Source: Klebsiella phage ST340-VIM1phi10.1. From it: a stretch of 36,124 nucleotides of DNA. How positions within the stretch are numbered: the first letter of the stretch is position 1; every line of letters starts with the position of its first letter. This document shows, in pieces, positions 3,029 to 36,124 of this stretch. Location of the stretch: sequence record MK422455.1. One strand, 5' to 3'. The position numbers were made by a program, and so were the translations under genes. The notes beneath the pieces were generated by a model, which saw only the letters and a program-made list of their open reading frames with translations, searched no databases and was not told the origin of the DNA.

Positions 3029-3595
3029 CTAATAAGAAGGGAGTCTTATCTTACTTTCTATGAACAAGGTTTTGAGAGTATCAGGAGTTATCTCTATAAC
3101 ATCACCGATGTTCAAAGCTTTATCTTTTGCATAATTTCCAACAGAATCAAGGAAGTCATGATGCATTCTGACTAACAATTTAACGTCGTTCACAATAGGA
3201 TTAAATTCGTACTCCCAATCACCTTTACTCTCAAGGCAATTATAATAAAAGAAATATATCTCTTCGGCTTTCCAAAAATCAGAATACGCACCACCTGTGC
3301 GCCCCATCTCACGCCCTATTCTTTCATAGTCAAAATTATATCCATCATAACCATCAGCATATGCACCACAATAGAGCACCTTAACTCTGCCACGAGCGTA
3401 ATCTCTGACATCACATATAGTCTCTAAATTTACTTTATAGGCGCATAACGCATAGCCATAATGACTATTTTCCGAGCTGGGAACTTTTAGTTCAATTTTT
3501 TTTGGATCCCATCCCAAGATGTAGGCTGCAAGCCAATGACCAGCCTCATGCCTTGCTATCCGGTAAACTGCTTTCTTGTAGTCGTAAGCGTTCAT
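3029..3595 (-). CDS. HEXXH zinc-metallopeptidase-like protein (moron)
   Basis: HEAGH motif at residues 16-20 (ARHEAGHWLAAY) resembles the FtsH/M41 and ImmA/IrrE active-site helix. A GGAYSD motif follows ~85 aa later. GC is about 33-35% against ~55% in the flanks. A strong AGGAGGGG ribosome-binding site precedes the ATG at 3595. Confidence 0.55.
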   Translation of the reverse strand: MNAYDYKKAVYRIARHEAGHWLAAYILGWDPKKIELKVPSSENSHYGYALCAYKVNLETICDVRDYARGRVKVLYCGAYADGYDGYNFDYERIGREMGRTGGAYSDFWKAEEIYFFYYNCLESKGDWEYEFNPIVNDVKLLVRMHHDFLDSVGNYAKDKALNIGDVIEITPDTLKTLFIESKIRLPSY

Positions 3596-3869: not shown

Positions 3870-4211
3870 TTACTTCACCTTCCGACAGTCGTACGTCCAG
3901 AACTCTCTGGGCTCGTCCATGTTCTTGCGGATCACTTCGACGTTGAGGATGGCCTTATTGTTGCGCTTAACGTAGTCGAGACCTAGCCAACGCCCTGTTT
4001 TGGCGTCTGGGAGCATCCATTGCATCATGACGTTATCGAAGTCGTCTTTTTGCTTGAGGAAGGTCATTTTCTGCGTTTCAGGGGCTTGTCCGTTGATATG
4101 CATCAACCCATCGCTTTCGCCCTTTAAGAAAAAAGGTCCGCATTGAGTGGCAGAAAAAGCTCCGCAGGAATAAAACACCCCAAAGACCAAAAATATTCCT
4201 AATTTTTTCAT
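3870..4211 (-). CDS. Small secreted protein with N-terminal signal peptide (113 aa)
   Basis: MKKLGIFLVFGVFYSCGAFSA signal-like N-terminus (AFSA-TQ cleavage or a possible lipobox Cys). Lower GC than the neighbours. Its stop overlaps the hub gene start at 4211. Confidence 0.55.
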   Translation of the reverse strand: MKKLGIFLVFGVFYSCGAFSATQCGPFFLKGESDGLMHINGQAPETQKMTFLKQKDDFDNVMMQWMLPDAKTGRWLGLDYVKRNNKAILNVEVIRKNMDEPREFWTYDCRKVK

Positions 4212-8141: not shown

Positions 8142-8373
8142 TGTCCTCTCTCCATTTCGCTATGCGGTATTCGTTATCGGCTTTTAGGTCCAGCCAGTCA
8201 TTCATGCGGGCAACATCGGCCAGGTCGACCGAGCCGTCTTTAAGTGCGGTGTAAGTGATGTATCCGGCATCAACCGGGCGCATCAGGAAGCTTTCGCCTT
8301 CAGGAAGAGTTTCCAGCGTCAGGCCACTGGCGGGGTGGACGTCTCGCTGGCGGGGAGTTCTTTCAAAAAATTT
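8131..8373 (-). other. Programmed -1 frameshift extension of the tail assembly chaperone (G/GT-like)
   Basis: Slippery heptamer T_TTT_TTG at 8364-8370 (minus strand) sits 16 codons before the chaperone stop. The -1 frame is open for about 78 codons and stops at 8131-8133, just inside the tape measure start. Confidence 0.5.
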
Positions 8374-8744
8374 CCCAGACTATCGGCGACCACCCGCGCC
8401 ACCAGCTGCAGCATGGTAAACAGGTCCGTATCGTCGAACATCAGTACGCCCTGATCGAACACCTTCGTCCAGCCCTTTTCGTGCTGGCGGGAAACGACGC
8501 TCAGGCACGGATAAATCACCGCGTTAACGTCCTCATCCGGCAGCGCGGCCAGCGTATCGGCAATTTTCGGCAGTACGCTTTCCAGCACTGCACCAGAGTT
8601 ACCCGCAGCGGCCTGCGCTTTCAGCGTGGAAAATTCACTAACGAGCCCGGCCAGCACCGGCAGCAGCTTACGGCTGACCTTCAGTTGCTGGAATACGTCA
8701 AGTTTGGCGGTTCGGTAATTAACCCCTTTGATTTCAAATTCCAT
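8319..8744 (-). CDS. Tail assembly chaperone (frame-0 product)
   Basis: 141 aa between tube and tape measure; acidic C-terminus; has the frameshift extension above. Confidence 0.55.
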   Translation of the reverse strand: MEFEIKGVNYRTAKLDVFQQLKVSRKLLPVLAGLVSEFSTLKAQAAAGNSGAVLESVLPKIADTLAALPDEDVNAVIYPCLSVVSRQHEKGWTKVFDQGVLMFDDTDLFTMLQLVARVVADSLGNFLKELPASETSTPPVA

Positions 8745-8747
8745 CTG

Positions 8748-9188
8748 TTAAAACTCCCCCAGCAGTTGGTCAATCTTGCCGCAGTCAAAAACCCACGACA
8801 CTGTGTTACCAACCTTTGCGTTGGCGTGATCCGGCTGTTTCTGGAAGGCGCAGGAACGCGCTGTCGAGATGTCGCCAGAGACTTTGTTTCGCACTACGAT
8901 GACGTTGTTACCCCAGGTGGCTGAAGACTGGCTCTGTGCGTTGTACATCAGAGACAGTTTTTTGTTGACCGGGGAGGTCTTAAGCAGCGTTACCGTGATG
9001 GTGCCGCTCTTACCGGCGTGAAGGCTGTGCATCACTTCCCCGTCGGCGCCTACGGTCATGGTGTTTTTTGCCTCTGCCATGACTACGGTGATCCCCTCTT
9101 CGGAGTTCGCCGAGCCGTAACCCAGATCGATACTGCCGGTCGGGCCCGTCAGGGATGCAGAGACGTCAATAAAAGAGTAAGTAGACAT
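8748..9188 (-). CDS. Tail tube protein (DUF3277-like)
   Basis: 146 aa directly downstream of the sheath-like gene; remembered family resemblance. Confidence 0.5.
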   Translation of the reverse strand: MSTYSFIDVSASLTGPTGSIDLGYGSANSEEGITVVMAEAKNTMTVGADGEVMHSLHAGKSGTITVTLLKTSPVNKKLSLMYNAQSQSSATWGNNVIVVRNKVSGDISTARSCAFQKQPDHANAKVGNTVSWVFDCGKIDQLLGEF

Positions 9189-9198
9189 TTAGTTCCCC

Positions 9199-10344
9199 TT
9201 AACGGACCACGTTGATCTGCACGTCGCCATAATGAATAGCGCCAGCCAGCTTGATCGCCGCCTGAATTACCGGCGACTTACGCGCTTCCCTGTCGGATTG
9301 AGCCTGGTTAGCTACCGCGTCGGCGTAGACGTAGTAACCCTTGGTCAGGGTATCCCCGGATTCAATCTGGCCAATCGGGCCACCGTTCCAGACACCCGGA
9401 GCAATGAGGCCGTTATTTACCGCCTGATCCAGTGAGGCTTCGACGTTGGTCATTAACCGGGTTACGCCTGCGTCGGTCTGCGGGATTTTGGTGGCCGAGG
9501 TGTAAAGCAGGTTATAGAGATTGGTCTGAACGTAGTTCTGCAGCCAGTCCAGGCCATGCCGCTCATCAAAGAAATCACCGTTCGCCATCACACCCTGCTG
9601 GATAATCGCTGTATCGTTGGCGTAGTAGACGTAGACGTTACCGTTAATAGCATCAATAGCGGACGCCTGTGCGGTCGTCAGCGTTTCGTGCGTCACGCCC
9701 GGCTCGGTTTTGAACTTCAGGGTGATCGTGGTGTTGTTGCCGGTGAAATTCACCGTAAACGCACGGCCAAATGCCGAGATAGCGGCGTATTTGCTGCTGG
9801 AGCTGTACTGCCAGAACGTACGGCTGTAGCCGGCGGCTTTCAGCTTATAGCCGATGTTGTCGGTATTCCCCGAGACCAGCACATTCACATCAGCAGTGGT
9901 AACGGCCAGAATGCGGCTTAAGCTGGATGCCTCAATAGCAGCAGCAACGGAAATCACGTCAGCCTCAACCAGATCGGCGCTGTCGGCAATTGCCAGCCCG
10001 TACCAGTTGGTATACTGAAGGCAGGCATTAACGGCCTGTAGCAAGGTTTCCACCGCCCCGGCCTCTCCTTCCGCCAGCGTCTTCGCCCAACGGCCGATAT
10101 AGACCAGCGTGGGTTTTGGTGATTGTGAAAAGAAGATGGTCGCTGCTTCGTATTCCGGGGAGTCAGCGCCAAAATCATCGCCGATATCTTCAATGGCCGA
10201 ATACTGGCGAATGCGCTCGGTAACCGGAATAACGGTAGAGGTTCCCAGAATGAGGAGCGCACCGAAGTTTCGCCCCGTTGCCGCTACCGGTGACATGATG
10301 ACGTCAACGTTAACGACATTGGAAACAGGTAAGCCCTGTGCCAT
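9199..10344 (-). CDS. Tail sheath-like protein (DUF3383-like)
   Basis: 381 aa preceding the tube gene; remembered family resemblance. Confidence 0.5.
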
Positions 10345-24041: not shown

Positions 24042-25686
24042 TATTTACGTTTTTCTGGAGTTTTCGTTTTGCTTCGATAATTAATTGCCCGTCGCTGCCC
24101 TCAGGAGGCTCATAGTTGATACTGGCGCTCGGAGGTGGAAATAGATCCTGGTCAGGTTTCTTCCCCATCTGCTGCAGGCGTTCGCGGCGTTTAGCAAATT
24201 TGATAAGTTTGTGTTTGATGTGATTGCTGACCTCCGGTGTGATCTCCATTGGAAAGTCGCTTAAGCCGTTGGGCCATTCGCCGAATTTCTCCTGAAAGGT
24301 ATGAGCACACCAGCCATCGCTGACAGGTTTCCCCTGCGCCGCACGATGACGCTGGTAAAACTTGATCTGACTCCACCAGGACTGCTTGTCGCTTTTGGTA
24401 TAAACCGTTTCGTGCTTGCTCATTTTTTTGATGTTGCGGGTGCCGTCAGTCTCGACGTCCTGACCAACGAGCGGTTTAAATCCGCACTTTGGGCAGACGT
24501 AAACGCCGGATGGCTTCATGAAATGACATTCGGGGCATTCTTTCGGAAGTTTTTCTTCGCGCTCCTTAGTTGCGCCGGCAGCGGCCGCTTTCATGCCGTC
24601 GTTTGTGGATGGCAGATCGTCGTATTCGATGGAGTCAGGGAAGCCGAGGCGATGCACAGTGCCACTGTGATCAAAAATCAGGCAGGCATCTTTCCCGGGT
24701 GCAGTTCGCAGTCCGCGGCCCAGCGCCTGCAGCCAGCGAATTTCACTTTTTGTCGGACGGGCGTAGATAATGCAGCGAACATCACTATCAAAACCGGCCA
24801 CCAGCACACCCACACTGACGATTATTTTTGTGGCGCCAGTCTCGAAGCGGTGGATCATCGCCTGCCGTTCTTCGTGGGGTGTTTCTGCGACCATCACCTC
24901 AGCGTTAATGCCCGCCTTGTTAAACTGCATGGTTACAAAGTTTGCGTGGGCCTTGTTAACGCAGAACGCCACCGTAGGAAGGTCACGACCATGACGAAGC
25001 CAGTTATCGACGATATCGCCCACCAGGTCAGAACCGCACATGATTTCCGCCAGCTGGGACTCGTCGTAATCAGTACCGAACTCTATAGATGGCTTCGTTT
25101 CTACCCCGCTAAGATCCGGTTTTGTTGGGGCGAAAAATTCGTACTTACTGAGGTCACCACGCTGGATCAATTCGCCAATCGTCGTTGGCTTAATCAGGTG
25201 TTGATAGTAATGGCCCAGGAACGGCGCAAAAGGGGTACCAGATAAACCGATAACCTTCGCTTTTTTCTCCGCTGTGATCCGTTCGATTTCTTTCAGGATA
25301 CGGCGTTTACGCAGGTGCGCCTCATCGACAATAAGCAGATCGATGTTTTTGGGAAATTCACGCCTAATGAGCGTGTCAGCGCTCGCAATCTGGATCAGCA
25401 GATTTGGGTCGTAGTTCGGGTGATCACGCCAGATAAAACTAATCTGGTCTTCCGGCAACCCGTATTCTGTAAAGCGCTGGGCGGTCTGGTTAATCAGGAT
25501 CGTATACGGGGCGACAAACAGAACACGCATACCACGACTAACCAGGCCGGCGGCGATAAACGCAGCCAGGCCTGTTTTGCCGCTTCCGGTCGGTGCGTAG
25601 ACCATGAAGGAATCGTGCGCCTTCCAGGTGCGCCGCAGCATGTTAAGCCCACGTTCCTGTGCAAAGTTCGGTGTGATGTTAAGCAT
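24028..25686 (-). CDS. SF2 DEAD/DEAH-box replicative helicase with C-terminal zinc ribbon
   Basis: Walker A APTGSGKT, LIVDEAH, helicase C motifs, and a C-terminal CPECH ... CPKCG zinc ribbon. Confidence 0.8.
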   Translation of the reverse strand: MLNITPNFAQERGLNMLRRTWKAHDSFMVYAPTGSGKTGLAAFIAAGLVSRGMRVLFVAPYTILINQTAQRFTEYGLPEDQISFIWRDHPNYDPNLLIQIASADTLIRREFPKNIDLLIVDEAHLRKRRILKEIERITAEKKAKVIGLSGTPFAPFLGHYYQHLIKPTTIGELIQRGDLSKYEFFAPTKPDLSGVETKPSIEFGTDYDESQLAEIMCGSDLVGDIVDNWLRHGRDLPTVAFCVNKAHANFVTMQFNKAGINAEVMVAETPHEERQAMIHRFETGATKIIVSVGVLVAGFDSDVRCIIYARPTKSEIRWLQALGRGLRTAPGKDACLIFDHSGTVHRLGFPDSIEYDDLPSTNDGMKAAAAGATKEREEKLPKECPECHFMKPSGVYVCPKCGFKPLVGQDVETDGTRNIKKMSKHETVYTKSDKQSWWSQIKFYQRHRAAQGKPVSDGWCAHTFQEKFGEWPNGLSDFPMEITPEVSNHIKHKLIKFAKRRERLQQMGKKPDQDLFPPPSASINYEPPEGSDGQLIIEAKRKLQKNVNSASQ

Positions 25687-25994
25687 TGTCAGCCCTTTTT
25701 GAGTTCTACTCTTCCAGGAAGAAACATTCCTGACCTCTTGCCGGGATACCGTGTACCAGTTTGCTAGTGCGCCGCTCTTTTATGGTTCTGCCTTCAAGAT
25801 CGGTACCTACCTAACCCATGTACCTGTCTGTTGGAAAAGGACGCTATTCCTGCCCTAACTCCCAACTCCCCCCAACCCCCCTCTTCCCTCTTCCCCATCC
25901 CATGTACTCGCAAGCTGGTACAAAGAACAAAAAACAGTCAAGGATTGTTCCCTGCTATCACCCGGCACCTTTAAGCCCGGTGACCAACGGATCG

Positions 25995-26288
25995 TTACTG
26001 AGATCCGGCCAGGGGTGGCTGGGTCGTATACCCCTGCAGTGCGCGTCCGTGTGCATCCACGAATCTGCGAAGCCTCACATTGGCTTCATGCCTTGCCCGG
26101 TTCTCCTTGCGGTATGGAACGGGCTCGGCTTCGAACGATTCCTGATACACAGCTGCATAACGCTGAATGGCTTTTTGTCGTGCTGCTGGCGTCAGGCTCA
26201 GTAACTGCTGCTTGATCCATTCTTCATCTGCAGATGCGTACACAGATGGGAGCAAACCGTGGTCAGGCCTCATCCCGTGCAACATCAT
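25995..26288 (-). CDS. Hypothetical protein at the cII position
   Basis: 97 aa immediately downstream of cro; basic C-terminal half; function not recognised. Confidence 0.4.
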   Translation of the reverse strand: MMLHGMRPDHGLLPSVYASADEEWIKQQLLSLTPAARQKAIQRYAAVYQESFEAEPVPYRKENRARHEANVRLRRFVDAHGRALQGYTTQPPLAGSQ

Positions 26289-26484
26289 CTGAAAATACCT
26301 CGTCCAAACTTGTATTCAGGCCAAGCTGTTTAAACGCGCTGACGATCCGCTTTCCGACTGCAACATCAGGAATCCTTCTTCCTGTTTCGTAGTGGCTAAC
26401 GGCCCCCTGGGAGCTATCAATCAGCGCGGCCAGCTCTCCCTGAGTTACCTTTGCTTTGCGTCTAAGGCTCTTGATTCCACTCAT
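26263..26484 (-). CDS. cro: Cro-like HTH (XRE family) regulator
   Basis: 73 aa from ATG 26484. HTH VTQGELAALIDSSQGAVSHYETGRRIP. Divergent from cI. Confidence 0.7.
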   Translation of the reverse strand: MSGIKSLRRKAKVTQGELAALIDSSQGAVSHYETGRRIPDVAVGKRIVSAFKQLGLNTSLDEVFSDDVARDEA

Positions 26485-26581
26485 TCGATTAGTCTCGCAT
26501 AAATAATACATAACGTACTATACACGGTCACAAGAATAATACAAAATGGAAGTTGCTCAGTAAATACGGAATGTAATAATC
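26485..26581. promoter_or_regulatory. OR-like divergent promoter/operator region (pR / pRM)
   Basis: 97-bp cI-cro intergenic region. ATAATACA at 26503-26510 and 26536-26543, a related GTAATAAT at 26572-26579, and AATACATAACGTA at 26505-26517. Confidence 0.5.
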
Positions 26582-27250
26582 ATGGCTATGAAACAGAGAT
26601 GGCAGGACCTGGCCAAAACCAGGATGAAAGAAGTCGGCATGACTCAAGAACAGCTGGCAGAGGCGCTCGGCATAACGCAGGGCGGGCTGGGCCATTGGTT
26701 AAACGCCAGACGTGAACCGAACTTAGAGGTTATAGCTAAGATTTTTAACATATTGAAAATGCCCGGCTTCGTAGTAAATGCTGACGGCACTATCAGCGAC
26801 TCAAGAGCCGATCACAATGTAAGTTTTAATAGCATTAACGAATCCAAGGGAAGCTACCCTGTTATAAGCTGGGTTAGCGCTGGAGATTGGATGGAAGCTG
26901 TAGAACCGTACCACCGTAGAGCGATAGATCGATGGTATGACACCACCGTTGAATGCTCTGAGGATTCGTTCTGGTTAGACGTCAGAGGCGATTCCATGAC
27001 ATCACCAGCAGGGCTGAGCATACCGGAAGGGATGGCGATACTTGTCGATCCCCAAGTGGAAGCAATCAACGGAAAATTGGTTGTAGCGAAACTTGACGGT
27101 GACAATGAAGCCACTTTCAAAAAGCTTGTTATCGATGCCGGTCAAAGATTTCTCAAACCCCTCAACCCCCAATACCCAATAATCCCTATCAATGGCAATT
27201 GCCGTATTATCGGGGTTGTAGTCGACGCAAAAATCACCAACCTCCCATAA
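26582..27250 (+). CDS. cI: CI-type repressor (N-terminal HTH, C-terminal LexA/S24 autopeptidase domain)
   Basis: HTH MTQEQLAEALGITQGGLGHWLN. S24 domain with GDSM Ser and KLVVAK Lys motifs. Confidence 0.85.
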   Translation: MAMKQRWQDLAKTRMKEVGMTQEQLAEALGITQGGLGHWLNARREPNLEVIAKIFNILKMPGFVVNADGTISDSRADHNVSFNSINESKGSYPVISWVSAGDWMEAVEPYHRRAIDRWYDTTVECSEDSFWLDVRGDSMTSPAGLSIPEGMAILVDPQVEAINGKLVVAKLDGDNEATFKKLVIDAGQRFLKPLNPQYPIIPINGNCRIIGVVVDAKITNLP

Positions 27251-27254
27251 ATTG

Positions 27255-27277
27255 GCCGCGAAAGCGGCTTTTTTTTT
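27255..27277 (+). terminator. Intrinsic terminator after cI
   Basis: GCCGC-GAAA-GCGGC hairpin followed by T9, starting 5 nt after the cI stop. Confidence 0.7.
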
Positions 27278-27371
27278 GCCTCCAACACCCCACCAGAAAC
27301 TAAAAAACCTTGAAAAACAAAATGATGTGAAATAACACACCAAAATACTCCATTTTGTATTGATCTTATTT

Positions 27372-27386
27372 AATACGTTATGTATT
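27372..27386. promoter_or_regulatory. OL-like operator: inverted copy of the OR motif (AATACGTTATGTATT)
   Basis: 13 contiguous bp TACGTTATGTATT are the exact reverse complement of AATACATAACGTA in OR (26505-26517). Internally palindromic (AATAC-N5-GTATT). Confidence 0.45.
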
Positions 27387-27420
27387 GTTTATGCATTAGC
27401 GGATTAATGGAGTGCAAAAG

Positions 27421-27735
27421 ATGAGTACAGAGAAATTTTTTCAACTGGTAACTATACCTGATTACCGTTTCTCTTCCGATAAAGAGCAATGTCAAAACAT
27501 TGATTTCGACAAAATTGCTACTGATTGCGATACAAAAACAATATCTATTTTGCAAGCCATCAATCATATAGGGGTTAGCATAATGAGTGAGGCAGAAGAA
27601 AAGAGATTAAATAAAGATAAAATAATGATGCTTTCTAGTGTGGTTGCAGACCTCGCTGAATTAGCAATAGCAACAAATAAAATAGCTAACTCAGCAACAT
27701 ATTCTTCCGGTTATAAGGATGCTAAAAATGTCTGA
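27421..27735 (+). CDS. Small acidic hypothetical protein (104 aa), AT-rich moron
   Basis: GGAG 8 nt before ATG 27421; about 35% GC; no recognisable domain. Confidence 0.5.
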   Translation: MSTEKFFQLVTIPDYRFSSDKEQCQNIDFDKIATDCDTKTISILQAINHIGVSIMSEAEEKRLNKDKIMMLSSVVADLAELAIATNKIANSATYSSGYKDAKNV

Positions 27736-27916
27736 TATCACTTTGCAAAAAGCAGCATCAAAGGCTTACCAGGCTGAGATTGTGGCGAGGATGCTTGAGA
27801 ACTACCCTCATAAACTGACCGACTCAGACGTGGAATCTGTCGCCTCACTTTTGGCTGATCTGATTGGGCCAGTTGCAGCGTACCTTATTGAGGAAGAGTC
27901 TAAAAACCCGGCTTAA
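27728..27916 (+). CDS. Small acidic helical hypothetical protein (62 aa), translationally coupled to the upstream gene
   Basis: AAGG 8 nt before ATG 27728; 8-nt overlap with the upstream stop; net acidic. Confidence 0.5.
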   Translation: MSDITLQKAASKAYQAEIVARMLENYPHKLTDSDVESVASLLADLIGPVAAYLIEEESKNPA

Positions 27917-27984
27917 AAATTTAATTAGTAATTTTAATTACAGGAGTAATCCCGGGGATTTCTGCAATCAAATTAAGGGTAACC

Positions 27985-28083
27985 ATGATTAATAAACAAG
28001 CATTTAAAACAGCTCAGTTATTTGTCTCTCTTGGTTATTGGTCTATAGCCATGCTTTATTTAAAAAAGGCTTACGGTAAATAA
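27985..28083 (+). CDS. Possible 32-aa hydrophobic peptide (MINKQAFKTAQLFVSLGYWSIAMLYLKKAYGK)
   Basis: AAGGGT 5 nt before the ATG; its stop lies 2 nt before the next gene's GTG start. Confidence 0.2.
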   Translation: MINKQAFKTAQLFVSLGYWSIAMLYLKKAYGK

Positions 28084-28085
28084 AA

Positions 28086-28451
28086 GTGAATAATTTAATT
28101 AGCACTTATAGACGCAGAATTTTAAAAGCGGCCTTGTTACGCCACCAGCGAAAGACTGGGAGTAGCTTACTTGTCATTAAGCTCAACAAGGGTGGGATTA
28201 GTACTATCGAATTAACTGAGATTCTTCTTGATGGATTGTTGCGGAAATTCGAGCGACTGGCGCTCGGTGAATACGGAAATGTGGAAGGTGTGAAAGCTCT
28301 TAAGGGAATTTACAGCAACTCTGTTGATGTTAATGGCAGCGGCGAATTCCTCACAGAAAGCGGGAAAGAGTTAATCGACGAGCTTATTTCTGAACTGGTT
28401 GAGTTCGTCAAAAAGCAGAAACCAGTTACTGCGGAGTCCGGCAATGAATAA
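28086..28451 (+). CDS. Hypothetical protein with N-terminal arginine-rich motif (candidate N-like antiterminator; weak)
   Basis: STYRRRILKAALLRHQRK near the N-terminus; located downstream of the OL-like site; GTG start; C-terminal half acidic, unlike lambda N. Confidence 0.4.
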   Translation: MNNLISTYRRRILKAALLRHQRKTGSSLLVIKLNKGGISTIELTEILLDGLLRKFERLALGEYGNVEGVKALKGIYSNSVDVNGSGEFLTESGKELIDELISELVEFVKKQKPVTAESGNE

Positions 28452-28698
28452 CCAGCAAACAATGCTCTATCAGGGTGTGCTGATCCCCCGCCCCGTGTTG
28501 AACGTGGATCTGCATGTCCTCCCTGATTTTACCGGGCGGGTAGTCTTGCACATCGAGAACGGGAGGGTGATATGCGACCGCCAGCTGTTCGACGACGAGC
28601 ACATTTGCACACTGGCCACGTTTATCGAAATGGCCCGCGACGCGGGGTTGAGGATCGAGGAGGAAGCTGGTGGCACTGACAGCGATACGAATTCCTGA
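28444..28698 (+). CDS. Hypothetical protein (84 aa), start overlaps the upstream stop (ATGAATAA)
   Basis: ATG 28444 overlaps TAA 28449-28451. Confidence 0.4.
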   Translation: MNNQQTMLYQGVLIPRPVLNVDLHVLPDFTGRVVLHIENGRVICDRQLFDDEHICTLATFIEMARDAGLRIEEEAGGTDSDTNS

Positions 28699-28884
28699 GA
28701 GGGTTCACCTGCAGGCGCTGCAGGTCCTGCTGCGGTATCGGCGCCGGCGGATATTCCCGCGGCGAATGCGCCGCACCGGCTACCTCAGCCTGAAGGTTAA
28801 CCCACGCTGGCGCCTGTTATCGAAAGACGATGGCCGGAACTGGGAAGTTATGAGTCATGAAACCTATAACCGGGAGAAAGACAA

Positions 28885-29310
28885 ATGATTGACAACAGAA
28901 CTGTCAGCGCCATTGACCTGGCGTTGCAAAAGCACCCAACGCCAGTTGGTGATCTGTTCGCCGCGATCCGCCACGGACGCATGAAGCGGTGCTTCAGCCG
29001 GGATACCGCAATTCGTTACCTGGCGTTCTTCATGACCTCCCGAGCTTTTGGGCGTTCTGGTTTCAAGCAGCGTTATCCGGACGTGCAGGTAATTCATCCA
29101 CTGAATCCAGAACTGAGTAGCTGGCAACGTGGCGCCGTGACCACTGAGTATTTTAACGCCCACCAGCGCACCGTTCGCCGGCTGCGTCGCATCCTCGCCC
29201 GCAAAAGAGAAATGCAAAAGTGGTGCAAAAAGTGGGATGCCATGCACGACCGCTACGTGAAAGAGCGCGAAGAACTACAGGCCTGTAAGCCTGGAGGGCT
29301 GAGTCGATGA
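28885..29310 (+). CDS. Basic hypothetical protein (141 aa)
   Basis: GGGAGAAAG ribosome-binding site before ATG 28885. Confidence 0.45.
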   Translation: MIDNRTVSAIDLALQKHPTPVGDLFAAIRHGRMKRCFSRDTAIRYLAFFMTSRAFGRSGFKQRYPDVQVIHPLNPELSSWQRGAVTTEYFNAHQRTVRRLRRILARKREMQKWCKKWDAMHDRYVKEREELQACKPGGLSR

Positions 29311-29501
29311 TTGCTTACTTACGCATTGTTCTATCGGTGGTGATTGTCGCCAGCGTTTATGGGCTGTTCGTTCCGATCCTCATTTCGATGAAGGACACGA
29401 CAGCAGTTATATCCGGTTTTGCCCTGGCGATTCTGACCCCGCCGTGCATCTACGCCATTTGTAAGGGTCTTGTGCTTACCGTAACGAAGGAAAAGAAATG
29501 A
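29307..29501 (+). CDS. Small two-transmembrane-segment membrane protein (64 aa), coupled to the SPFH gene
   Basis: Two hydrophobic helices; ATGA overlaps with both neighbours. Confidence 0.45.
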   Translation: MIAYLRIVLSVVIVASVYGLFVPILISMKDTTAVISGFALAILTPPCIYAICKGLVLTVTKEKK

Positions 29502-30325
29502 AAAAAGCAATTATGGCTTCAATTATCGCACTCTCTGCCATCGGCCTTGTTGGTTGCGATCGAGTTGAGCCCGGCAACGTGGGTATCAAGGTGAATAAGT
29601 TGGGCGACGATAAAGGCGTTGGTGAAGTCGTCGGCGTCGGCCGCTACTGGACCGGCTGGAATACCGAGGTTTATATCTTTCCGACCTTCAAGCAGATGAA
29701 AACGTATGAAGACGCTTTCAACTTCCAGATGAGCGATGGAACCACCATCGGCTACCACATCGGGGTCGCGTACAAGGTTGATCCGACCAAAGTTACAACC
29801 GTTTTCCAGACCTACCGTAAAGGCGTGGACGACATCACCGACACCGACCTGCGGCAGAAAATTGCTGACGCCCTTAATCGTCTCGCAAGTCGGATGAGCA
29901 CCGATAAATTCATTGACGGCGGGAAAGCTGAGCTGCTTGAAAACGCACTGAAAGAGATCCAGTCCGATATGGGGCCGGTTGGTATCCAGGTGATCAGCCT
30001 TTCTTACGTTGGCCGTCCGGAATACCCGCCGACAGTGATCGAAAGCATCAACGCCAAAGTTACGGCCAACCAGAAGACGCTGCAGCGCGAGCAGGAAGTT
30101 AAACAACGTGAAGCTGAAGCCAACATGTTACGAGCCGAAGCCGATGGCCAGGCGGATGCAAAGCTGAAATTGGCTGAAGCAGAAGCAAAGTCTATCCAGA
30201 TCCGTGGGCAGGCCTTGCGTGAGAACCCTGAGGTACTGCAACTGGAGGCCATCAACAAATGGAATGGCACCCTGCCCCAGTACATGACCAGCGGAACAAA
30301 CACCCCTTTTATCCAGGTTAAATGA
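29498..30325 (+). CDS. SPFH/band-7 (HflK/C-prohibitin fold) lipoprotein
   Basis: Signal peptide with lipobox LVGC; SPFH core followed by a long coiled coil (EQEVKQREAEANMLRAEADGQADAKLKLAEAEAKS). Confidence 0.75.
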   Translation: MKKAIMASIIALSAIGLVGCDRVEPGNVGIKVNKLGDDKGVGEVVGVGRYWTGWNTEVYIFPTFKQMKTYEDAFNFQMSDGTTIGYHIGVAYKVDPTKVTTVFQTYRKGVDDITDTDLRQKIADALNRLASRMSTDKFIDGGKAELLENALKEIQSDMGPVGIQVISLSYVGRPEYPPTVIESINAKVTANQKTLQREQEVKQREAEANMLRAEADGQADAKLKLAEAEAKSIQIRGQALRENPEVLQLEAINKWNGTLPQYMTSGTNTPFIQVK

Positions 30326-30369
30326 TCCACCAGCCCGGCGACAAGCCGGGCACATATGAGAGGTTCGCA

Positions 30370-30948
30370 ATGCTTCAGAACATGCTTAACCCGGAACCAA
30401 CCTCAACAGGGATCCGGTCTGGAAACCGGGTGATTGGCTACTCCGCTGCTATTCGCCTGCTGGATAACGGTCGCTATGACAAACACCTTGCCGATGGAAT
30501 GGAAATTCTGGCCTGCATCATGGAAGCGGTAGAAAGCAACTGGATCACGCTCAATATCGAAAAAGAGTTGATCCTCTGGCGCTGGTTACTGGCTGCCGTG
30601 TTCATCACTGAGGAGCTGGAGAAAAACGGAACTGTCGACGTTCCGAATGATACTGGCGGTGTTGATACTGCTGTTATCTATTCCAGCAAGCATGGCGCCA
30701 TTAGCGTCTATCCGGGACCTGAACGCTTTGCACTCGCCAACCATATTGAGCTGGGGGCAATCGAGAAATATGGGCCAGAGGTTGGCCAGCAGCTGGCGCT
30801 GCGGATGTATCAGGACATGGTTATTGCTGACGAAGAATTTGGGTTCAGGTTATCAGCACTTGGCCGGGAGGGGCTTAACCTCCTCCATGACAGCTTTATC
30901 GAACACATCCAGATCGAAGGTGTGCCCGAAGCACCGATTATGCATTGA
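30370..30948 (+). CDS. Hypothetical protein (192 aa)
   Basis: GAGAGG 6 nt before ATG 30370. Confidence 0.45.
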   Translation: MLQNMLNPEPTSTGIRSGNRVIGYSAAIRLLDNGRYDKHLADGMEILACIMEAVESNWITLNIEKELILWRWLLAAVFITEELEKNGTVDVPNDTGGVDTAVIYSSKHGAISVYPGPERFALANHIELGAIEKYGPEVGQQLALRMYQDMVIADEEFGFRLSALGREGLNLLHDSFIEHIQIEGVPEAPIMH

Positions 30949-30953
30949 GGGGA

Positions 30954-31664
30954 ATGATGATGAATAACTTGATCACTAACAAACCATCCATGACCAGCCT
31001 TGAGATCGCCGAGCTGGTAGAAAAACGCCACGACAACGTGAAACGCACGATTGAGACCCTGATTATGCGTGGCGTTATTACTTCTCCTCAAATTGAGGAA
31101 AAGCCTACTGCCGGGCGCCCCACAACAATTTACGTTTTTGAAAGTGAAGAAGGGAAGCGTGACAGCATCATTGTGGTCGCGCAACTCAGCCCCGAGTTTA
31201 CCGCCAGACTGGTAGATCGCTGGAAAGAGCTGGAAGAAGAACGCTCCCGGCCAAAATCGCAGGCAGAGCTGATCGCTGAAATGGCCCTGCTGAATGTTGA
31301 GCAGGAACGACGCCTCTACCAGGTTGAAGAACAGGTGGAAACCGTAGTCGAAGCTGTCGAAAACATTAAGCGTGGAAATATGCGGGCCGGGTATGTCGGT
31401 TATCGCCAGGTGGTCGCAAAAAGCGGCATGACCGATGCCAAGTGTCGAAACCTTGTTAACGCATACCGTATCCCAACCGATACACACGAATTCATGACGC
31501 CTGATGGTTTACTGTCTCGCCGGGCGATCGTGGAGTTTGAACCTTTTATGAAAGCATTCCGCCAAATGATGGCAGAAGCCGAACCACGTGGGACCCGTTG
31601 GTATCACCCGAAAATGGGACTCTTTCAGGCTATCGGATGGGAGGAAAAACATTGTGAAAATTGA
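30954..31664 (+). CDS. rha: Rha-family phage regulatory protein
   Basis: N-terminal MTSLEIAELVEKRHDNVKRTIETL matches the Phage_pRha signature; GAGGGGA before the ATG run. Confidence 0.7.
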   Translation: MMMNNLITNKPSMTSLEIAELVEKRHDNVKRTIETLIMRGVITSPQIEEKPTAGRPTTIYVFESEEGKRDSIIVVAQLSPEFTARLVDRWKELEEERSRPKSQAELIAEMALLNVEQERRLYQVEEQVETVVEAVENIKRGNMRAGYVGYRQVVAKSGMTDAKCRNLVNAYRIPTDTHEFMTPDGLLSRRAIVEFEPFMKAFRQMMAEAEPRGTRWYHPKMGLFQAIGWEEKHCEN

Positions 31665-31878
31665 GTTTAATGATCAAGGGTCGGTTTCAGTTATCACGGT
31701 CACCAGCACCGTGTTTGAGTTCCGCCGGCACAACCGGGCGATTGATGTCGCGTTGTTCCTCACGCCTGAAATTACCAGCCAGAGCAGCGGTTTTTTCATT
31801 ATGAAAACGATCTTAAGCGGGAAGACACATCACGCGCTGCGGGCCTATAAACATCTGATCCGGGAGGCTAAGCAATGA
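31654..31878 (+). CDS. Hypothetical small protein (74 aa) starting at GTG with GAGG ribosome-binding site
   Basis: GTG 31654 lies 9 nt after GAGG; overlaps the Rha stop by 8 nt. Confidence 0.35.
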   Translation: MKIEFNDQGSVSVITVTSTVFEFRRHNRAIDVALFLTPEITSQSSGFFIMKTILSGKTHHALRAYKHLIREAKQ

Positions 31879-32087
31879 GAAACGGCCAGCATTATGCATA
31901 CCCAAATCCAAGCAACGCAACGCCTGGTGGTATGACTTATCGTCAGTATCTTATCGCAAAAATTGCACCAGTTATGATCACGAACTTCTTCAGCAACGAT
32001 GCTTGGACGGATTACGACGACCTCGCCAGAACTCTGATGATGGCTGTGGATGCCATCATCGAAGCTGAACAGGAGACAGCTGAATGA
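31875..32087 (+). CDS. Hypothetical small protein (70 aa)
   Basis: Coupled ORF; no motif recognised. Confidence 0.35.
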   Translation: MRNGQHYAYPNPSNATPGGMTYRQYLIAKIAPVMITNFFSNDAWTDYDDLARTLMMAVDAIIEAEQETAE

Positions 32088-32563
32088 CAATCTGCGAAAA
32101 ACGGCTTAAAAGAATCGCCGGCGGTGAACCTTTCTTCCCGGGCGAGGTGGTTGCGATGGCTCTTGAGCTTCTGGCGAATTCTAAAGAAACATTGCGGCCG
32201 GAATACCCTGAAACACTCCCCTGCCCGGTCATTCTTGAACCCGGCTTCCGGTTTGGCAAAGGCGTTGGCACTCACCTGGTTCTGCGAGCACTTAACAACA
32301 GGGCTAAACGTTACGCTGAATTGGATGCCATGGGTCCAGAGGCCCGCGCAGAGCATGATGCCGCTATCGTTGAACTTCGGGAAAAACTGGGTTTTGGTAC
32401 CCAAGCAAAAACAGCTGTGCAGGTGAAGCTTCCGGGACTGCCGCAGCTCGGATCTAACGCCGAATGGTATCAGGGATTTGCTGCTGGTGCAGGAAGCATG
32501 CGCGAAGCATGTGCGGCCGCTCTGATTTCTGCGGGTATTGAAATTATTGGGGAGACAATGTAA
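32084..32563 (+). CDS. Hypothetical protein (159 aa)
   Basis: Coupled ORF (ATGA overlap); no motif recognised. Confidence 0.45.
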   Translation: MTICEKRLKRIAGGEPFFPGEVVAMALELLANSKETLRPEYPETLPCPVILEPGFRFGKGVGTHLVLRALNNRAKRYAELDAMGPEARAEHDAAIVELREKLGFGTQAKTAVQVKLPGLPQLGSNAEWYQGFAAGAGSMREACAAALISAGIEIIGETM

Positions 32564-32635
32564 TGGACTGGCCAACAGCATTTTGCATCGTCGGTTGTGC
32601 GTTTGCCATAGCCTGGCTGTTTCGGAGTTAGTGTC

Positions 32636-32782
32636 ATGAATAGAGAATTTGAGATATGGATCAGACTGCGCTACGGCGGCCGCTATGACCTAACGCGAGA
32701 CGGTCACGGCTACTACAGCCGGGAAGTAGTTAAGCGGATGTATGAAGTGTGGTGCCACTGCCGTGGCCTGGAAGTGGTGTGA
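32636..32782 (+). CDS. Possible 48-aa protein with CHC motif
   Basis: GGAG 8 nt upstream; ends 10 nt before the xis start. Confidence 0.25.
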   Translation: MNREFEIWIRLRYGGRYDLTRDGHGYYSREVVKRMYEVWCHCRGLEVV

Positions 32783-32792
32783 GGTGAGTAAT

Positions 32793-32984
32793 ATGGTAGA
32801 CATTGAAATGATTGACGAGGAAGAGGCGATGCGGATGATCCGAGTATCTTCACGCGTGACCATCCGGAAATACACCGAGCGCTATAATTTCCCCAAGCCG
32901 GTCCGGACCTACCCTAAACAGTATCTGCGCTCTGCTATTGTGGAGTGGATCTTAAACGGGGGAGTCAACCAGAAATCTTCCTGA
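32793..32984 (+). CDS. xis: Excisionase (AlpA/Xis-like HTH)
   Basis: MVDIEMIDEEEAMRMIRVSSRVTIRKYTERYNFPKPV; GAGGTGAG before ATG 32793; convergent with and overlapping the int 3' end. Confidence 0.6.
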   Translation: MVDIEMIDEEEAMRMIRVSSRVTIRKYTERYNFPKPVRTYPKQYLRSAIVEWILNGGVNQKSS

Positions 32985-34146
32985 TATGCCAGAATATCTT
33001 TTCAGCATACAGATCGTAGGCGTCTTTCTGTTCGGCAATCCAGTCATGCTTGTTATAGACAGAAAGCACGCCACCAAGCTCATGCCCCAGCATTTTTTCG
33101 ATGACGTGCGGGGCAACCCCCTCTTCGGATAGCCGGGTTGCCAAGGTGCGCCGGAAATCATGTGAAGTAAACTCACCAAACCCCAACGAGTCTTTGATTC
33201 TTCTCAGAAATTTATTTGCACCAGAAATAGTTATAGGGCTTTTCAGGTCCTCGCCCGGGAAAAGTATATCCCCATACGTCATTTCAGCTTTTTTCAGCAA
33301 ATCATCTGCCGCGGAGAAAATTGGGCGCCTGATAATTTTGTTGGTTTTGCTTTTCTCTGCCGGAACAACCCATAACCCCTCCTCTCGGTCAAATTCACCC
33401 CTTATAGCCAGCCGAAGTTCGCTATTCCTGGCGCCGTACAGCATTAGCAATTGATGAAGCAATCGGTTAGAAGTTGACCCTCGACTTCTTTCTATAGCCA
33501 TCCAAATTTTGGCAAGCTGGTTATAGCTGAGTGTGGTCTCTCCAATCACAGGTTTAACACCGATGTCTTTCGGCTGCAAAAGCATGAGCTCGGTTGTGCT
33601 AACGAACTGTCGCCGCGTACACCAACCAATGGCGGACCTGAGCTGTATCAATAAATGCCGGGCTCGGCGAGGATTGATTTTCTCCTCTTCGGTAAACCTC
33701 TCAACCCACAAGCGGACTGGGATATCCTCAACCGGAATACCGGGAAAAGCGTCACGCATGTGCTTTATAACCGTTGACTTATAAAGCGCTATCGTCTTAG
33801 CCCTTAACGTTACGTCAACGTAATTTTCCTTCCAGTAATCCAGGCAATCCTTTACCGTTGGCTTACTCTTGGATTTGTTGCCACCAGCCAGCGTTCGGGG
33901 GTCAATGCCTTTGTCTGCCGACTCCCTCAGGTCTGCAACGATATTGCGGGCATCGCGCAGCGTCAGCGCTGGGTAGCGTCCAAGCCCCATTCGGTTCTGC
34001 TTTCCTTCCCATCGGAACCTAAACTGAAAGCTGATCACGCCTTTGGGGGTTATGCGAACTCCAAGCCCGTCAGAATCCGTAATTTCAGCAGGCCCAGAAT
34101 ATGGTTTACCATAGATAGAGCGAAGCTTTGTGTCACTGATTGCCAT
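32965..34146 (-). CDS. int: Tyrosine integrase (P4-like, N-terminal arm-binding domain)
   Basis: 393 aa; C-terminal catalytic region with HDFRRT ... HELGG ... Y signature. Confidence 0.85.
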   Translation of the reverse strand: MAISDTKLRSIYGKPYSGPAEITDSDGLGVRITPKGVISFQFRFRWEGKQNRMGLGRYPALTLRDARNIVADLRESADKGIDPRTLAGGNKSKSKPTVKDCLDYWKENYVDVTLRAKTIALYKSTVIKHMRDAFPGIPVEDIPVRLWVERFTEEEKINPRRARHLLIQLRSAIGWCTRRQFVSTTELMLLQPKDIGVKPVIGETTLSYNQLAKIWMAIERSRGSTSNRLLHQLLMLYGARNSELRLAIRGEFDREEGLWVVPAEKSKTNKIIRRPIFSAADDLLKKAEMTYGDILFPGEDLKSPITISGANKFLRRIKDSLGFGEFTSHDFRRTLATRLSEEGVAPHVIEKMLGHELGGVLSVYNKHDWIAEQKDAYDLYAEKIFWHIRKISG

Positions 34147-34149
34147 GTT

Positions 34150-34340
34150 AGTTTTCTGTACTCATCACTTTGGTATTTTATGTACTTATTCTGTACTCAA
34201 TATCGCATGAACGAACATAAACAACAATATCAAATCATGTACAACCATGCGCAACAATTGGCAGCACAACTAAAATAATAATAAAAAATCATATACATAA
34301 ACATCTAACCGTATTCATTCTTGTCTGAACAATCTCAACC
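34150..34340. repeat. att junction region with arm-type direct repeats TT[CA]TGTACT[CT]A x3
   Basis: TTCTGTACTCA at about 34154 and 34189, TTATGTACTTA at about 34178; AT-rich; lies directly between the int start and the truncated host gene. Confidence 0.4.
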
Positions 34341-34342
34341 AT

Positions 34343-34891
34343 GTGCAAAGCCCACACCTTGCCGAAGATTACGAAACGATGGTTCCTTTTCAGGCACTGC
34401 AGATGATTGGACACCAGGTCGATGCCGTCTGCCCGGATAAAGCCGCTGGCGACTATGTCATGACCGCAATCCATGACTTTGACGGCGCCCAGACTTATAG
34501 CGAAAAGCCGGGCCATCGCTTCACGCTGAACGCTGACTTCGCCGCAGTAAAGGCCGAGAACTACGATGCGCTAGTGATCCCCGGCGGCCGGGCGCCGGAG
34601 TATCTGCGCCTGAACGAGGAGGTTATTAAACTGGTACAGGCCTTCGACGCCGCGCGTAAACCTATCGCCGCCGTCTGCCATGGCCCACAGCTGCTGGCCG
34701 CCGCCGGTATTCTGCAGGGACGGACCTGCAGCGCCTATCCCGCCTGCGCTCCGGAAGTGCGCCTGAGCGGTGGGCACTATGCGGATATAGGTATCGACCA
34801 GGCGCATGTGGACGGTAACCTGGTTACCGCCCCCGCCTGGCCGGCTCATCCACAGTGGCTGGCGAAATTCGCCGCCCTGCTGGCGGAATAA
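34343..34891 (+). CDS. DJ-1/PfpI family protein (YhbO-like), 5'-truncated relative to the family (possible pseudogene)
   Basis: Conserved ICHGPQLL nucleophile elbow and [15 protein letters not shown]. Alignment by eye to YhbO/PfpI shows about 10-12 N-terminal residues (first beta strand) missing. Only a GTG start is available. Confidence 0.55.
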
Positions 34892-35028
34892 CCATACTGA
34901 GCCGGCGTTTTTATTGAGCCACCCGCTCCCCTGCGGGAATCTATGCCTCAGCGCGGTGTTTAGTCTCGGGTAAACGCGCTGTTGTATGTTATGCCGATGG
35001 CGGGGATGCGCCACGATTTACCGCTTAT

Positions 35029-35085
35029 CTTCAGGGGCCGGTTAAAAAACCAGCCCCTGATAGATTTATCGCTGCCCTGACGGGC
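35029..35085. terminator. Bidirectional terminator-like hairpins between convergent genes
   Basis: 8-bp inverted repeat TCAGGGGC ... GCCCCTGA (35031-35060) with an A6 loop, plus GCCC-tgac-GGGC. Confidence 0.4.
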
Positions 35086-35089
35086 ATCA

Positions 35090-35566
35090 TCAATTCAGCA
35101 ACGCGATCTGCTTGACCACTATTTCATTGATTTTATAGATTATTTCAGGAGTTACGCGTTCTTTGATATCGCGGTCAACAAATACCCGAATGCAATATTT
35201 GATGATTTGATACTGATTTAACTTATCACCACATTCAATTAACGGTTTTATTTCGTAGCGGTTCTTAAGATCTTTCACCAAAAGCTTAACTTCGGTTTTA
35301 TCCAAGTCTTTAAAGGCGCAGTCGGAGACAATATCAACGGCAAATTCATGTGGTTTGAAATGAGGCTGTAATACAGAAGTCAATAACCCGGTGAGTTGAC
35401 TCTTCCACGCCTTATTTTCCTTGTCAGCGATGTTAGCTTTATACACAGAGTGTTTGGCCTCATAGACCTTCGACCATGGGTGTCGGTTAATAATGTCATC
35501 AAGTATTTTTTTATTAACCGCCTCGGTATCGCTGATATCTATCCATTCACCAACCTTGTCATTCAA
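35090..35566 (-). CDS. Hypothetical protein (158 aa), downstream partner of the HD-domain gene
   Basis: About 33% GC; 24-nt gap from the upstream gene; no motif recognised. Confidence 0.5.
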   Translation of the reverse strand: MNDKVGEWIDISDTEAVNKKILDDIINRHPWSKVYEAKHSVYKANIADKENKAWKSQLTGLLTSVLQPHFKPHEFAVDIVSDCAFKDLDKTEVKLLVKDLKNRYEIKPLIECGDKLNQYQIIKYCIRVFVDRDIKERVTPEIIYKINEIVVKQIALLN

Positions 35567-35590
35567 AAAATAATCATCACTGCACGCCAG

Positions 35591-36124
35591 TTAAAAATCC
35601 TTCAGCGCGTCGATGAAGCTTTCATCGCTATGGTCAACGATACGGTCGGTAACGTCAGCGATAATGACATTTTGTGGATCCTTGCTTTGCATAATCTCAC
35701 ATAATGTGCTCAACATCGTCGCAAAGGCGCGGTTTGTTTTATGGTAATATACCTGCGAAAAAAGGCTGGAGCGCGCCCCAATAAACTCAGCGATCGAATC
35801 AATCCCACTCTCTTTGTAAGCAAGGTACAATTTTCCCTGTTCCTCGACCGGGACAATTGACATAAACAAGCGATTGTAATCGTAGATGCCACACTTGACG
35901 CCGGAGAAATAGCCATCTCTGAGCAAGTAATCCATCCGGTCGGCATCGATCGGACAGGAAGAGATGATCGAGGTCATTAACGGCAGGATATCTGTTGCCT
36001 TTCCATTAATTTCCTCAATGATCTGTTGGTCACCGTATCTTTTTTCGATAATTTTTAACACATTTTCGATATTTATTTCGTCATCGACCTTACCTTGTTT
36101 TCTCAGATCATGATAAATCATCAG
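35591..36124 (-). CDS. HD-domain phosphohydrolase, dNTPase-like (C-terminal part; N-terminus outside window)
   Basis: DADRMDYLLRD matches the DxDRxDYLxRD metal-binding motif of SAMHD1/Dgt-type HD dNTP triphosphohydrolases; AT-rich. Confidence 0.55.
   Translation of the reverse strand: MMIYHDLRKQGKVDDEINIENVLKIIEKRYGDQQIIEEINGKATDILPLMTSIISSCPIDADRMDYLLRDGYFSGVKCGIYDYNRLFMSIVPVEEQGKLYLAYKESGIDSIAEFIGARSSLFSQVYYHKTNRAFATMLSTLCEIMQSKDPQNVIIADVTDRIVDHSDESFIDALKDF

Follow-up and report, generated by a model that had tools for sequence, protein, structure and literature searches.

Among the Dgt-family defence dGTPases is Sp-dGTPase, reportedly described by Tal et al. in 2022. The enzymes of this family, to which E. 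coli Dgt and, described as Dgt-like, Ogmios also belong, are HD-superfamily dNTP triphosphohydrolases encoded by single genes and were proposed or shown to deplete dNTPs in infection. Ogmios is an integron cassette of V. cholerae and by description a homologue of the DefenseFinder dGTPases (10.1101/2024.07.02.601686). A dNTPase defence operon of two genes is Clover, which consists of the Dgt-like dGTPase CloA and the nucleotidyltransferase CloB, a Pol-beta-type NTase producing an inhibitory nucleotide (PMC12265719). The SAMHD1-type enzymes, like human SAMHD1, EF1143 of E. faecalis (2o6i, 3irh, 4lrl) and the Aquifex protein 2hek, are characterized by an H..HD..D site. In SAMHD1, the residues K116, Q142, and R145 are allosteric, and the allosteric nucleotide site is formed in part by R451 and K455. 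The C-terminal lobe of SAMHD1 supplies tetramer contacts and is needed for the active tetramer.

The window analyzed here is the whole stretch of 36,124 nt deposited for Klebsiella phage ST340-VIM1phi10.1 (MK422455.1). Two ORFs follow each other on the minus strand at its end. The N-terminal-side ORF (35591..36124 including its stop, minus strand) contains CPIDADRMDYLLRD and is open at the window end. The original prediction had described it, correctly according to the ORF list and the translation, as an HD ORF with the motif DADRMDYLLRD that runs past the window edge. The second ORF (35090..35566, minus strand) has a TTG start, codes for 158 amino acids and, as had likewise been reported, is found 24 nt downstream of the end of the HD ORF. 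Searches with the 158-aa ORF alone against Pfam, NCBIfam, and PADLOC resulted in chance matches only and assigned it to no family, which agrees with the earlier description of an ORF without recognizable domain. For the HD fragment of the window alone, the same three collections gave only a sub-threshold match to HD_assoc_2.

The pair had been interpreted as a system of an HD dNTPase and a small partner. This interpretation has to be given up, as the supposed partner makes up the last third of the HD protein itself, cut off by a change of Tyr344 to a stop. With a probability of about 0.9, the region 35090-36124 represents the 3′ two-thirds of a single chromosomal K. pneumoniae gene, which encodes a SAMHD1-type protein of 510 amino acids and is split by a stop at codon 344. 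Both ORFs share one reading frame and are divided by a single TAA (codon 344, 35591-35593, minus strand), for which the intact allele has TAT (Tyr), and by eight sense codons. From 35594 to 36124 (minus strand), the window carries codons 167-343 of this SAMHD1-like gene, including DADRMDYLLRD as the last metal-ligand motif. The window enters the intact gene, which has a length of 1533 nt, at nucleotide 499, and the codons 1-166 are located outside the window, past its end. What had been taken for an intergenic gap of 24 nt (35567..35590, minus strand) is a run of eight in-frame codons after the TAA (LACSDDYF), corresponding to residues 345-352. The 158-aa ORF comprises residues 353-510 of the intact protein and the stop codon.

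Contigs of K. pneumoniae that continue outside the window were found by searching for the exact sequence of the 158-aa product. One of these loci (L008) is 100% identical to the window from 25090 to 36124 (11 kb) and reaches past the window end. Its upstream ORF is intact over 343 codons and is followed by the same TAA, which is common to the independent assemblies L001 and L008. Compared with the K. pneumoniae type strain ATCC 13883 (L024), the window shows 9 differences in 1035 nt and no indels. The coding changes are six synonymous exchanges, one I179V and one TAT to TAA at codon 344 (window position 35591), the last being the only disruptive change. Two further loci (L009, L010) have TAT at codon 344 and are thereby intact at this position like ATCC 13883, and TAT is also the codon of many more isolates. 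Hence, the gene has a premature stop which its intact orthologues at this locus lack and which recurs in independent assemblies, and is a recent pseudogene of the ordinary kind in the window lineage. The 158-aa ORF displays no decay, since only synonymous changes separate it from ATCC 13883. This fits a recent mutation and would also be compatible with a residual function.

A search with the read-through translation identified P0001, an “HD domain-containing protein” of K. pneumoniae with 510 amino acids (99% identity, 100% coverage), which represents a cluster of 3530 sequences and to whose C-terminus the 158-aa ORF is 99% identical. The gene is already annotated under this name and does not form a novel gene pair. 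In addition, more than 100 homologues with lengths of 498-530 aa were found at a query coverage of 95-100%, each covering both parts. They belong to genera like Dickeya, Serratia, Citrobacter, Proteus, Providencia, Aeromonas, Vibrio, Photobacterium, and Shewanella. A joint conservation of two genes, which the original prediction had proposed to check, is not what these homologues show: they are single ORFs of about 500-520 aa spanning both parts, and among those found in other genera no split homologue occurred. In an alignment of 52 homologues Tyr344 is invariant, as are D349 and F352 of the supposed spacer and the residues R380, W383, K385, F437, K438, D439, K450, L468, and R479 within the 158-aa part.

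The intact protein was assigned to the SAMHD1 type. In phmmer searches its N-terminal 310 residues matched 2hek (E 5.5e-28), EF1143 (2.4e-24), and SAMHD1 (about 1e-21), and the family profile matched PDB sequences with E-values from 3.7e-43 to 1e-29, reaching SAMHD1 residue ~557. The metal ligands H60, H113-D114, and D228 are invariant in the 52 homologues; D228 alone lies within the window, and H60 and H113-D114 were read from L008 and P0001. The ligand motifs align with FEHSLGV, HDLGHGPFSH, and DVDKWDY of SAMHD1. The protein thus has the same H..HD..D site as the SAMHD1-type enzymes and shares with them the motifs FEHSLGV, HDxGHGPxSH, D(A/V)D(R/K)xDY, and YxHK. It differs from SAMHD1 by its low identity of about 22%, by the lack of a SAM domain and by an Asn and a Phe aligned with D137 and H370, respectively.

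In contrast, the NCBIfam Dgt models were far from being reached, with 19.7 bits for TIGR01353 (cut-off 152.35) and 16.9 bits for PRK04926 (cut-off 405). The dGTPase model of PADLOC gave 20.4 bits and covered only residues 54-126, approximately 70 residues around the HD motif. By this partial match, the protein and the Dgt-family defence dGTPases belong to different HD subfamilies. Searches with family models gave no match to a YfbR-type family either. Of the original classification as a SAMHD1/Dgt-type HD dNTPase, the SAMHD1 part was therefore retained (E 1e-20 to 1e-43, TM 0.62-0.69) and the Dgt part was dropped (17-20 bits vs. 152 and 405), and the protein did not turn out to be a housekeeping enzyme of Dgt or YfbR type. 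It corresponds over positions 1-510 of 511 to phrog_35128 (PHROGs v4, 1095 bits), a full-length single protein of about 511 aa from phage genomes, whereas the window copy is interrupted. PHROGs gives this family no function.

Based on the conserved active site and the SAMHD1-like architecture, the best inference is that the intact enzyme would be a metal-dependent dNTP triphosphohydrolase. By analogy to SAMHD1 and to EF1143 of E. faecalis, its activity probably depends on nucleotide-driven oligomerization. In the family profile alignment K10, Q35, and R38 align with K116, Q142, and R145 of SAMHD1, and R380 and Tyr344 match R451 and Y419, respectively, so that the window copy is cut at the equivalent of SAMHD1 Y419. 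The allosteric-residue matches K10, Q35, R38, and R380 may hint at nucleotide-dependent oligomerization, which is suggestive only.

An AF2 model of the intact protein showed one compact fold (pLDDT 89.2, pTM 0.90). In a Foldseek search of this model against the PDB, human SAMHD1 chains ranked at the top with E-values of about 1e-17, around 530 aligned columns and TM scores of 0.62-0.69. The SAMHD1 fold is matched over the whole length of the protein, including the C-terminal lobe. The 158-aa ORF modeled alone reached a pLDDT of 89.1, and its best 50 PDB matches were all SAMHD1 chains (human, pig, and the fungus Rhizophagus), with a best E-value of 2e-4 and a TM score of only about 0.4. The family profile aligns to human SAMHD1 from ~307 to 557, in which the 158-aa region corresponds to ~420-557. 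Due to these fold matches and the profile alignment to the C-terminal region of SAMHD1, the “unknown partner” turns out to be the SAMHD1-like enzyme's own C-terminal lobe. According to the model, the predicted helix 335-346 contains the stop and the helix 349-363 contains the TTG. As both lie within helices, the break does not coincide with a domain linker.

For the intact family, depletion of dNTPs directed against phages seems the most likely role, which is proposed with modest confidence from the genomic settings of the homologues. An anti-phage role is favored by homologues that are carried on mobile elements. P0005, which is 67% identical and has a GC content of 0.33, is located in P2-like prophages of Klebsiella on at least four distinct contigs, with tail-fibre genes on one side and tail genes on the other, which corresponds to the variable Z/fun locus in P2. 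A copy was also found in the Klebsiella phage Kp4861-1, and in V. cholerae a homologue is part of an integron-like array in which short cassettes occur together with RelE/ParE/YoeB toxin-antitoxin modules. The family therefore occurs as mobile-element cargo in P2-like prophages, in phage Kp4861-1 and in the V. cholerae array. Its distribution is patchy, with 50 species matches over many phyla. Co-location with known defence genes was not observed: PADLOC gave no meaningful defence match for ten neighbours of the Proteus, Aeromonas, and V. cholerae homologues. In a literature search, no paper testing the SAMHD1-type family for phage protection was found, and the P2/P4 hotspot paper by Rousset et al. 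mentions no HD protein or dGTPase. A defence role of the intact protein is given somewhat less than an even chance. Whether it serves in defence or not, the intact protein would be a single-gene system.

The intact protein could also be a housekeeping regulator of the dNTP pool in K. pneumoniae with no part against phages, whose loss would be neutral drift; the odds are somewhat against this tentative reading. It agrees with the location of the gene, which in every K. pneumoniae locus seen is the same chromosomal site with metabolic genes around it, and with a GC content which, at 0.42 compared to 0.27-0.33 elsewhere, appears partly ameliorated and suggests a long residence. The lack of known defence genes near the homologues in PADLOC and the failure to match the dGTPase model of PADLOC outside the HD motif point in the same direction. 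However, the patchy distribution over the 50 species matches speaks against it. A megablast search with the region 34900-36124 in the complete E. coli genomes (all 5,426) gave no match at the DNA level, so no annotated E. coli counterpart exists. Furthermore, the prophage cargo P0005, the copy in Kp4861-1, the V. cholerae homologue within a toxin-antitoxin array, the membership in phrog_35128 and the strong AT-richness in every host all argue against a housekeeping function.

Members of phrog_35128 were seen as cargo of P2-like prophages, within an integron-like array and on small islets of the chromosome. Tentatively, the family may be a true bacterial counterpart of SAMHD1, a stand-alone anti-phage dNTPase distinct from the Dgt type, and its repeated inactivation in lineages of K. 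pneumoniae, of which the TAA allele of the window is one case, might then reflect the cost of carrying an enzyme that depletes nucleotides. The idea of an anti-phage function is a lead which bears on the family and not on the broken copy of the window. The intact family of SAMHD1 type, mobile, rich in AT and uncharacterized, is a reasonable candidate for a single-gene nucleotide-depletion defence. As the intact or broken state differs among clinical K. pneumoniae lineages, it could matter for phage susceptibility.

By the exchange of TAT to TAA at codon 344, the gene is divided into an N-terminal ORF of 343 aa and a second, apparent one of 158 aa. The 343-aa product would retain the catalytic H..HD..D residues and would be without the C-terminal lobe, the source of the allosteric residues R451 and K455 and of tetramer contacts in SAMHD1. 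Because of this loss and by analogy to SAMHD1, the truncated product most likely has no activity. Useful amounts of the 158-aa product are probably not made, as its ORF has a TTG start, begins in the middle of a helix and shows no Shine-Dalgarno-like sequence ahead of the TTG.

The lesions of other strains were compared with that of the window. Several loci have other lesions within the same ~30 nt, namely a shortening of T6 to T5, a deletion of 1 nt and a deletion of 4 nt, some of which give rise to a stop/start overlap of the form TTGA at the same TTG (L002, L004, L007). This resembles a hotspot and could point to a selected split. However, these loci were retrieved via their identity to the 158-aa product, and a gene caller yields exactly this product only where a break directly precedes the TTG, so that such breaks were selected for. 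Cluster members that were sampled without this bias showed other alleles, among them a stop after residue 418 (19 contigs), an altered tail from residue ~486 (11 contigs), a chimera with ClpV after residue ~305 and an in-frame deletion of 42 aa. A programmed or phase-variable split, which the junction lesions had suggested, was rejected as the principal explanation on account of the retrieval bias and of the breaks at ~305, 418, and ~486 together with the 42-aa deletion. From the other K. pneumoniae alleles broken at other positions, we conclude that the HD gene decays recurrently in K. pneumoniae, the window allele being one recent instance.

As a less likely variant, the fragments resulting from the split at codons 344-353 would still form a working enzyme. 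In such a functional split enzyme, the 343-aa product and the 158-aa product, the latter made by reinitiation at the TTG eight codons past the stop, would assemble non-covalently and be active or differently regulated. Both frames are intact and near-identical to the intact allele, the TTGA overlaps at the same TTG can permit translational coupling, and a 352-aa variant was found on 7 contigs. Nevertheless, this is very unlikely. The TTG lacks a Shine-Dalgarno sequence, the break points lie within predicted helices instead of a linker, and other genera have no split homologue. The clustering at the junction is explained by the retrieval route, and the lesions at ~305, 418, and ~486 and the 42-aa deletion point to general decay.

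A sequencing or assembly error, by which the TAA would be an artefact and the gene intact in the strain, is even more improbable. Related assemblies (L003, L005, L006) do contain many frameshifts, as is typical of low-accuracy long reads, but the change at codon 344 is a substitution and not a homopolymer indel. Moreover, the TAA was found again in L008, an NCBI assembly that occurs in four samples, and in L001, a Logan assembly of independent origin. Only the TAA allele yields the 343-aa product, which occurs on 3 contigs, while the exact 158-aa product is found on 45 contigs which include other junction-lesion alleles.

A genuine two-gene defence system, in which an HD dNTPase effector is combined with a distinct regulatory or sensor partner like CloA with CloB, is suggested by two adjacent co-oriented ORFs 24 nt apart and by the existence of two-gene dNTPase systems such as Clover (PMC12265719), but is practically negligible, since residues 353-510 of the HD protein make up the partner, which is part of the SAMHD1 fold, no nucleotidyltransferase or conserved neighbour is present in the K. 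pneumoniae, P2-like prophage, Proteus, Aeromonas, and V. cholerae contexts, and intact alleles and homologues with a single ORF already refute it. Whereas Clover has a separate partner gene, the HD locus has no second gene and its “partner” is its own C-terminal lobe. This removes a false lead, as the supposed new two-gene HD-dNTPase defence is one annotated gene with a nonsense mutation. In practice, adjacent co-oriented ORFs should be tested for a common frame before an operon is called.

The region had also been placed in a defence-island context next to a prophage junction. In the K. pneumoniae loci seen, the HD gene is flanked by an SDR/LysR pair on one side and by a convergent gene for a DJ-1/PfpI protein on the other. 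In the window, the DJ-1/PfpI gene is located at 34343..34891 (plus strand; Pfam DJ-1_PfpI E 1.6e-39, TIGR01382 178 bits). The full-length protein has 188 aa in L002, L004, and L009, and in the window lineage a prophage with a tyrosine integrase is inserted in the 5′ end of the gene. The homology to prophage-free loci stops at window position 34360, the boundary between chromosome and prophage, so that ~35 nt of the DJ-1/PfpI coding start are replaced. The neighbouring gene is thus truncated as had been stated, having lost ~35 nt of its 5′ end. A deposited prophage record labels this same junction with the words “coding region disrupted by phage integration.” A search of a phage collection matched the prophage/DJ-1 junction and not the HD gene. 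In prophage-free strains a T6SS cluster lies beyond the DJ-1/PfpI gene, and the HD gene is found at the same site. A link between prophage and HD gene was rejected for this reason; the HD gene is outside the prophage and its nearness to the junction is incidental. With LysR, SDR, DJ-1/PfpI, and, in prophage-free strains, T6SS genes as neighbours, the context is not that of a defence island.

The region 35090-36124 has a GC content of 0.409 (HD ORF 0.429, 158-aa ORF 0.386), compared to 0.517 for the whole window, ~0.57 for the chromosomal flanks and 0.614 for the DJ-1/PfpI gene. It is AT-rich relative to its surroundings as described originally, although the proposed value of about 33% GC was too low. 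The homologues in other hosts have gene GC contents of 0.27-0.33 at host GC contents of 0.32-0.61. The horizontal acquisition assumed before is in line with these values, and the low GC content of the K. pneumoniae HD gene (0.42 vs. 0.57 in its flanks) is consistent with an acquisition that may be old.

The bases preceding the TTG, the apparent start of the 158-aa ORF that forms the C-terminal part of the split SAMHD1-like HD phosphohydrolase gene, differ among K. pneumoniae-complex assemblies. They comprise either a T6 or a T5 run, and the sequences GATTTTTATCTGG, GAGATTTGG and GGTTATATTTGG were found. These variants were seen in five of the loci retrieved by exact match to the 158-aa product (L002, L003, L004, L006 and L007), at locus positions of about 9960-10004, the equivalent of window positions 35564-35600. 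Some of them give rise to TTGA stop/start overlaps. The variation is partly accounted for by retrieval bias and low-quality assemblies.

P0017, a K. pneumoniae protein of 481 aa, is chimeric: the HD-protein residues up to about 305 are joined to the C-terminal region of a ClpV-like AAA ATPase. Some strains must accordingly have lost, in one deletion, the remainder of the HD gene together with the DJ-1/PfpI gene and the initial genes of the T6SS cluster. A 617-nt contig (L038, NZ_JBHSON010000294.1) of an Actinomadura rugatobispora assembly codes for a segment that shares 99% identity with the K. pneumoniae HD protein over residues 102-306; it is almost certainly a Klebsiella contamination within this assembly.

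An intact, 67% identical homologue (P0005) is encoded at positions 8001-9533 of the loci L011-L014, within P2-like Klebsiella prophages. Its gene has a GC content of 0.33, compared to 0.55 in the flanks, lies directly after the tail-fibre genes and is followed by an inverted U-T-E-FII-FI tail block. This location is a cargo position, and superinfection exclusion is a candidate function.

The convergent neighbour of the HD gene is a DJ-1/PfpI (YhbO-like) ORF (34343-34891, plus strand), which carries the boundary to the prophage at position 34360. The first approximately 35 nt of this gene were replaced through the prophage integration. The GTG at 34343, at the 5′ end of the ORF, lies partly in phage-derived sequence and could serve as a substitute start, giving a predicted product of 182 aa instead of 188 aa. 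Between the two convergent genes, an inverted repeat (CAGGGGCTGG-TTTTTTAA-CCGGCCCCTG, coding strand, 35035-35062) was found by eye. It is probably a terminator hairpin common to both genes, and it was absent from the list of a consensus terminator scan.

The prophage immunity region (26263-28451) contains a Cro-like HTH ORF (26263-26511, minus strand) divergent from a CI-like repressor with HTH and Peptidase_S24 domains (26582-27250, plus strand). The repressor is followed by two AT-rich ORFs (GC 0.38-0.43) of 107 aa (27412-27735) and 121 aa (28086-28451), for which family searches gave no credible match.

A further AT-rich ORF of 188 aa (3029-3595, minus strand, local GC 0.38) is flanked by prophage baseplate and tail genes. 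It contains an HExxH-like motif (HEAGH) and matches phrog_36675, a family of unknown function, end to end, while Pfam and PADLOC yielded no family. The ORF may represent cargo of the prophage, its motif resembling that of metalloproteases. The adjoining 113-aa ORF (3870-4211, minus strand), for which family matches were sought and none obtained, has a hydrophobic, signal-peptide-like N-terminus (MKKLGIFLVFGVFYSCGAFSA).
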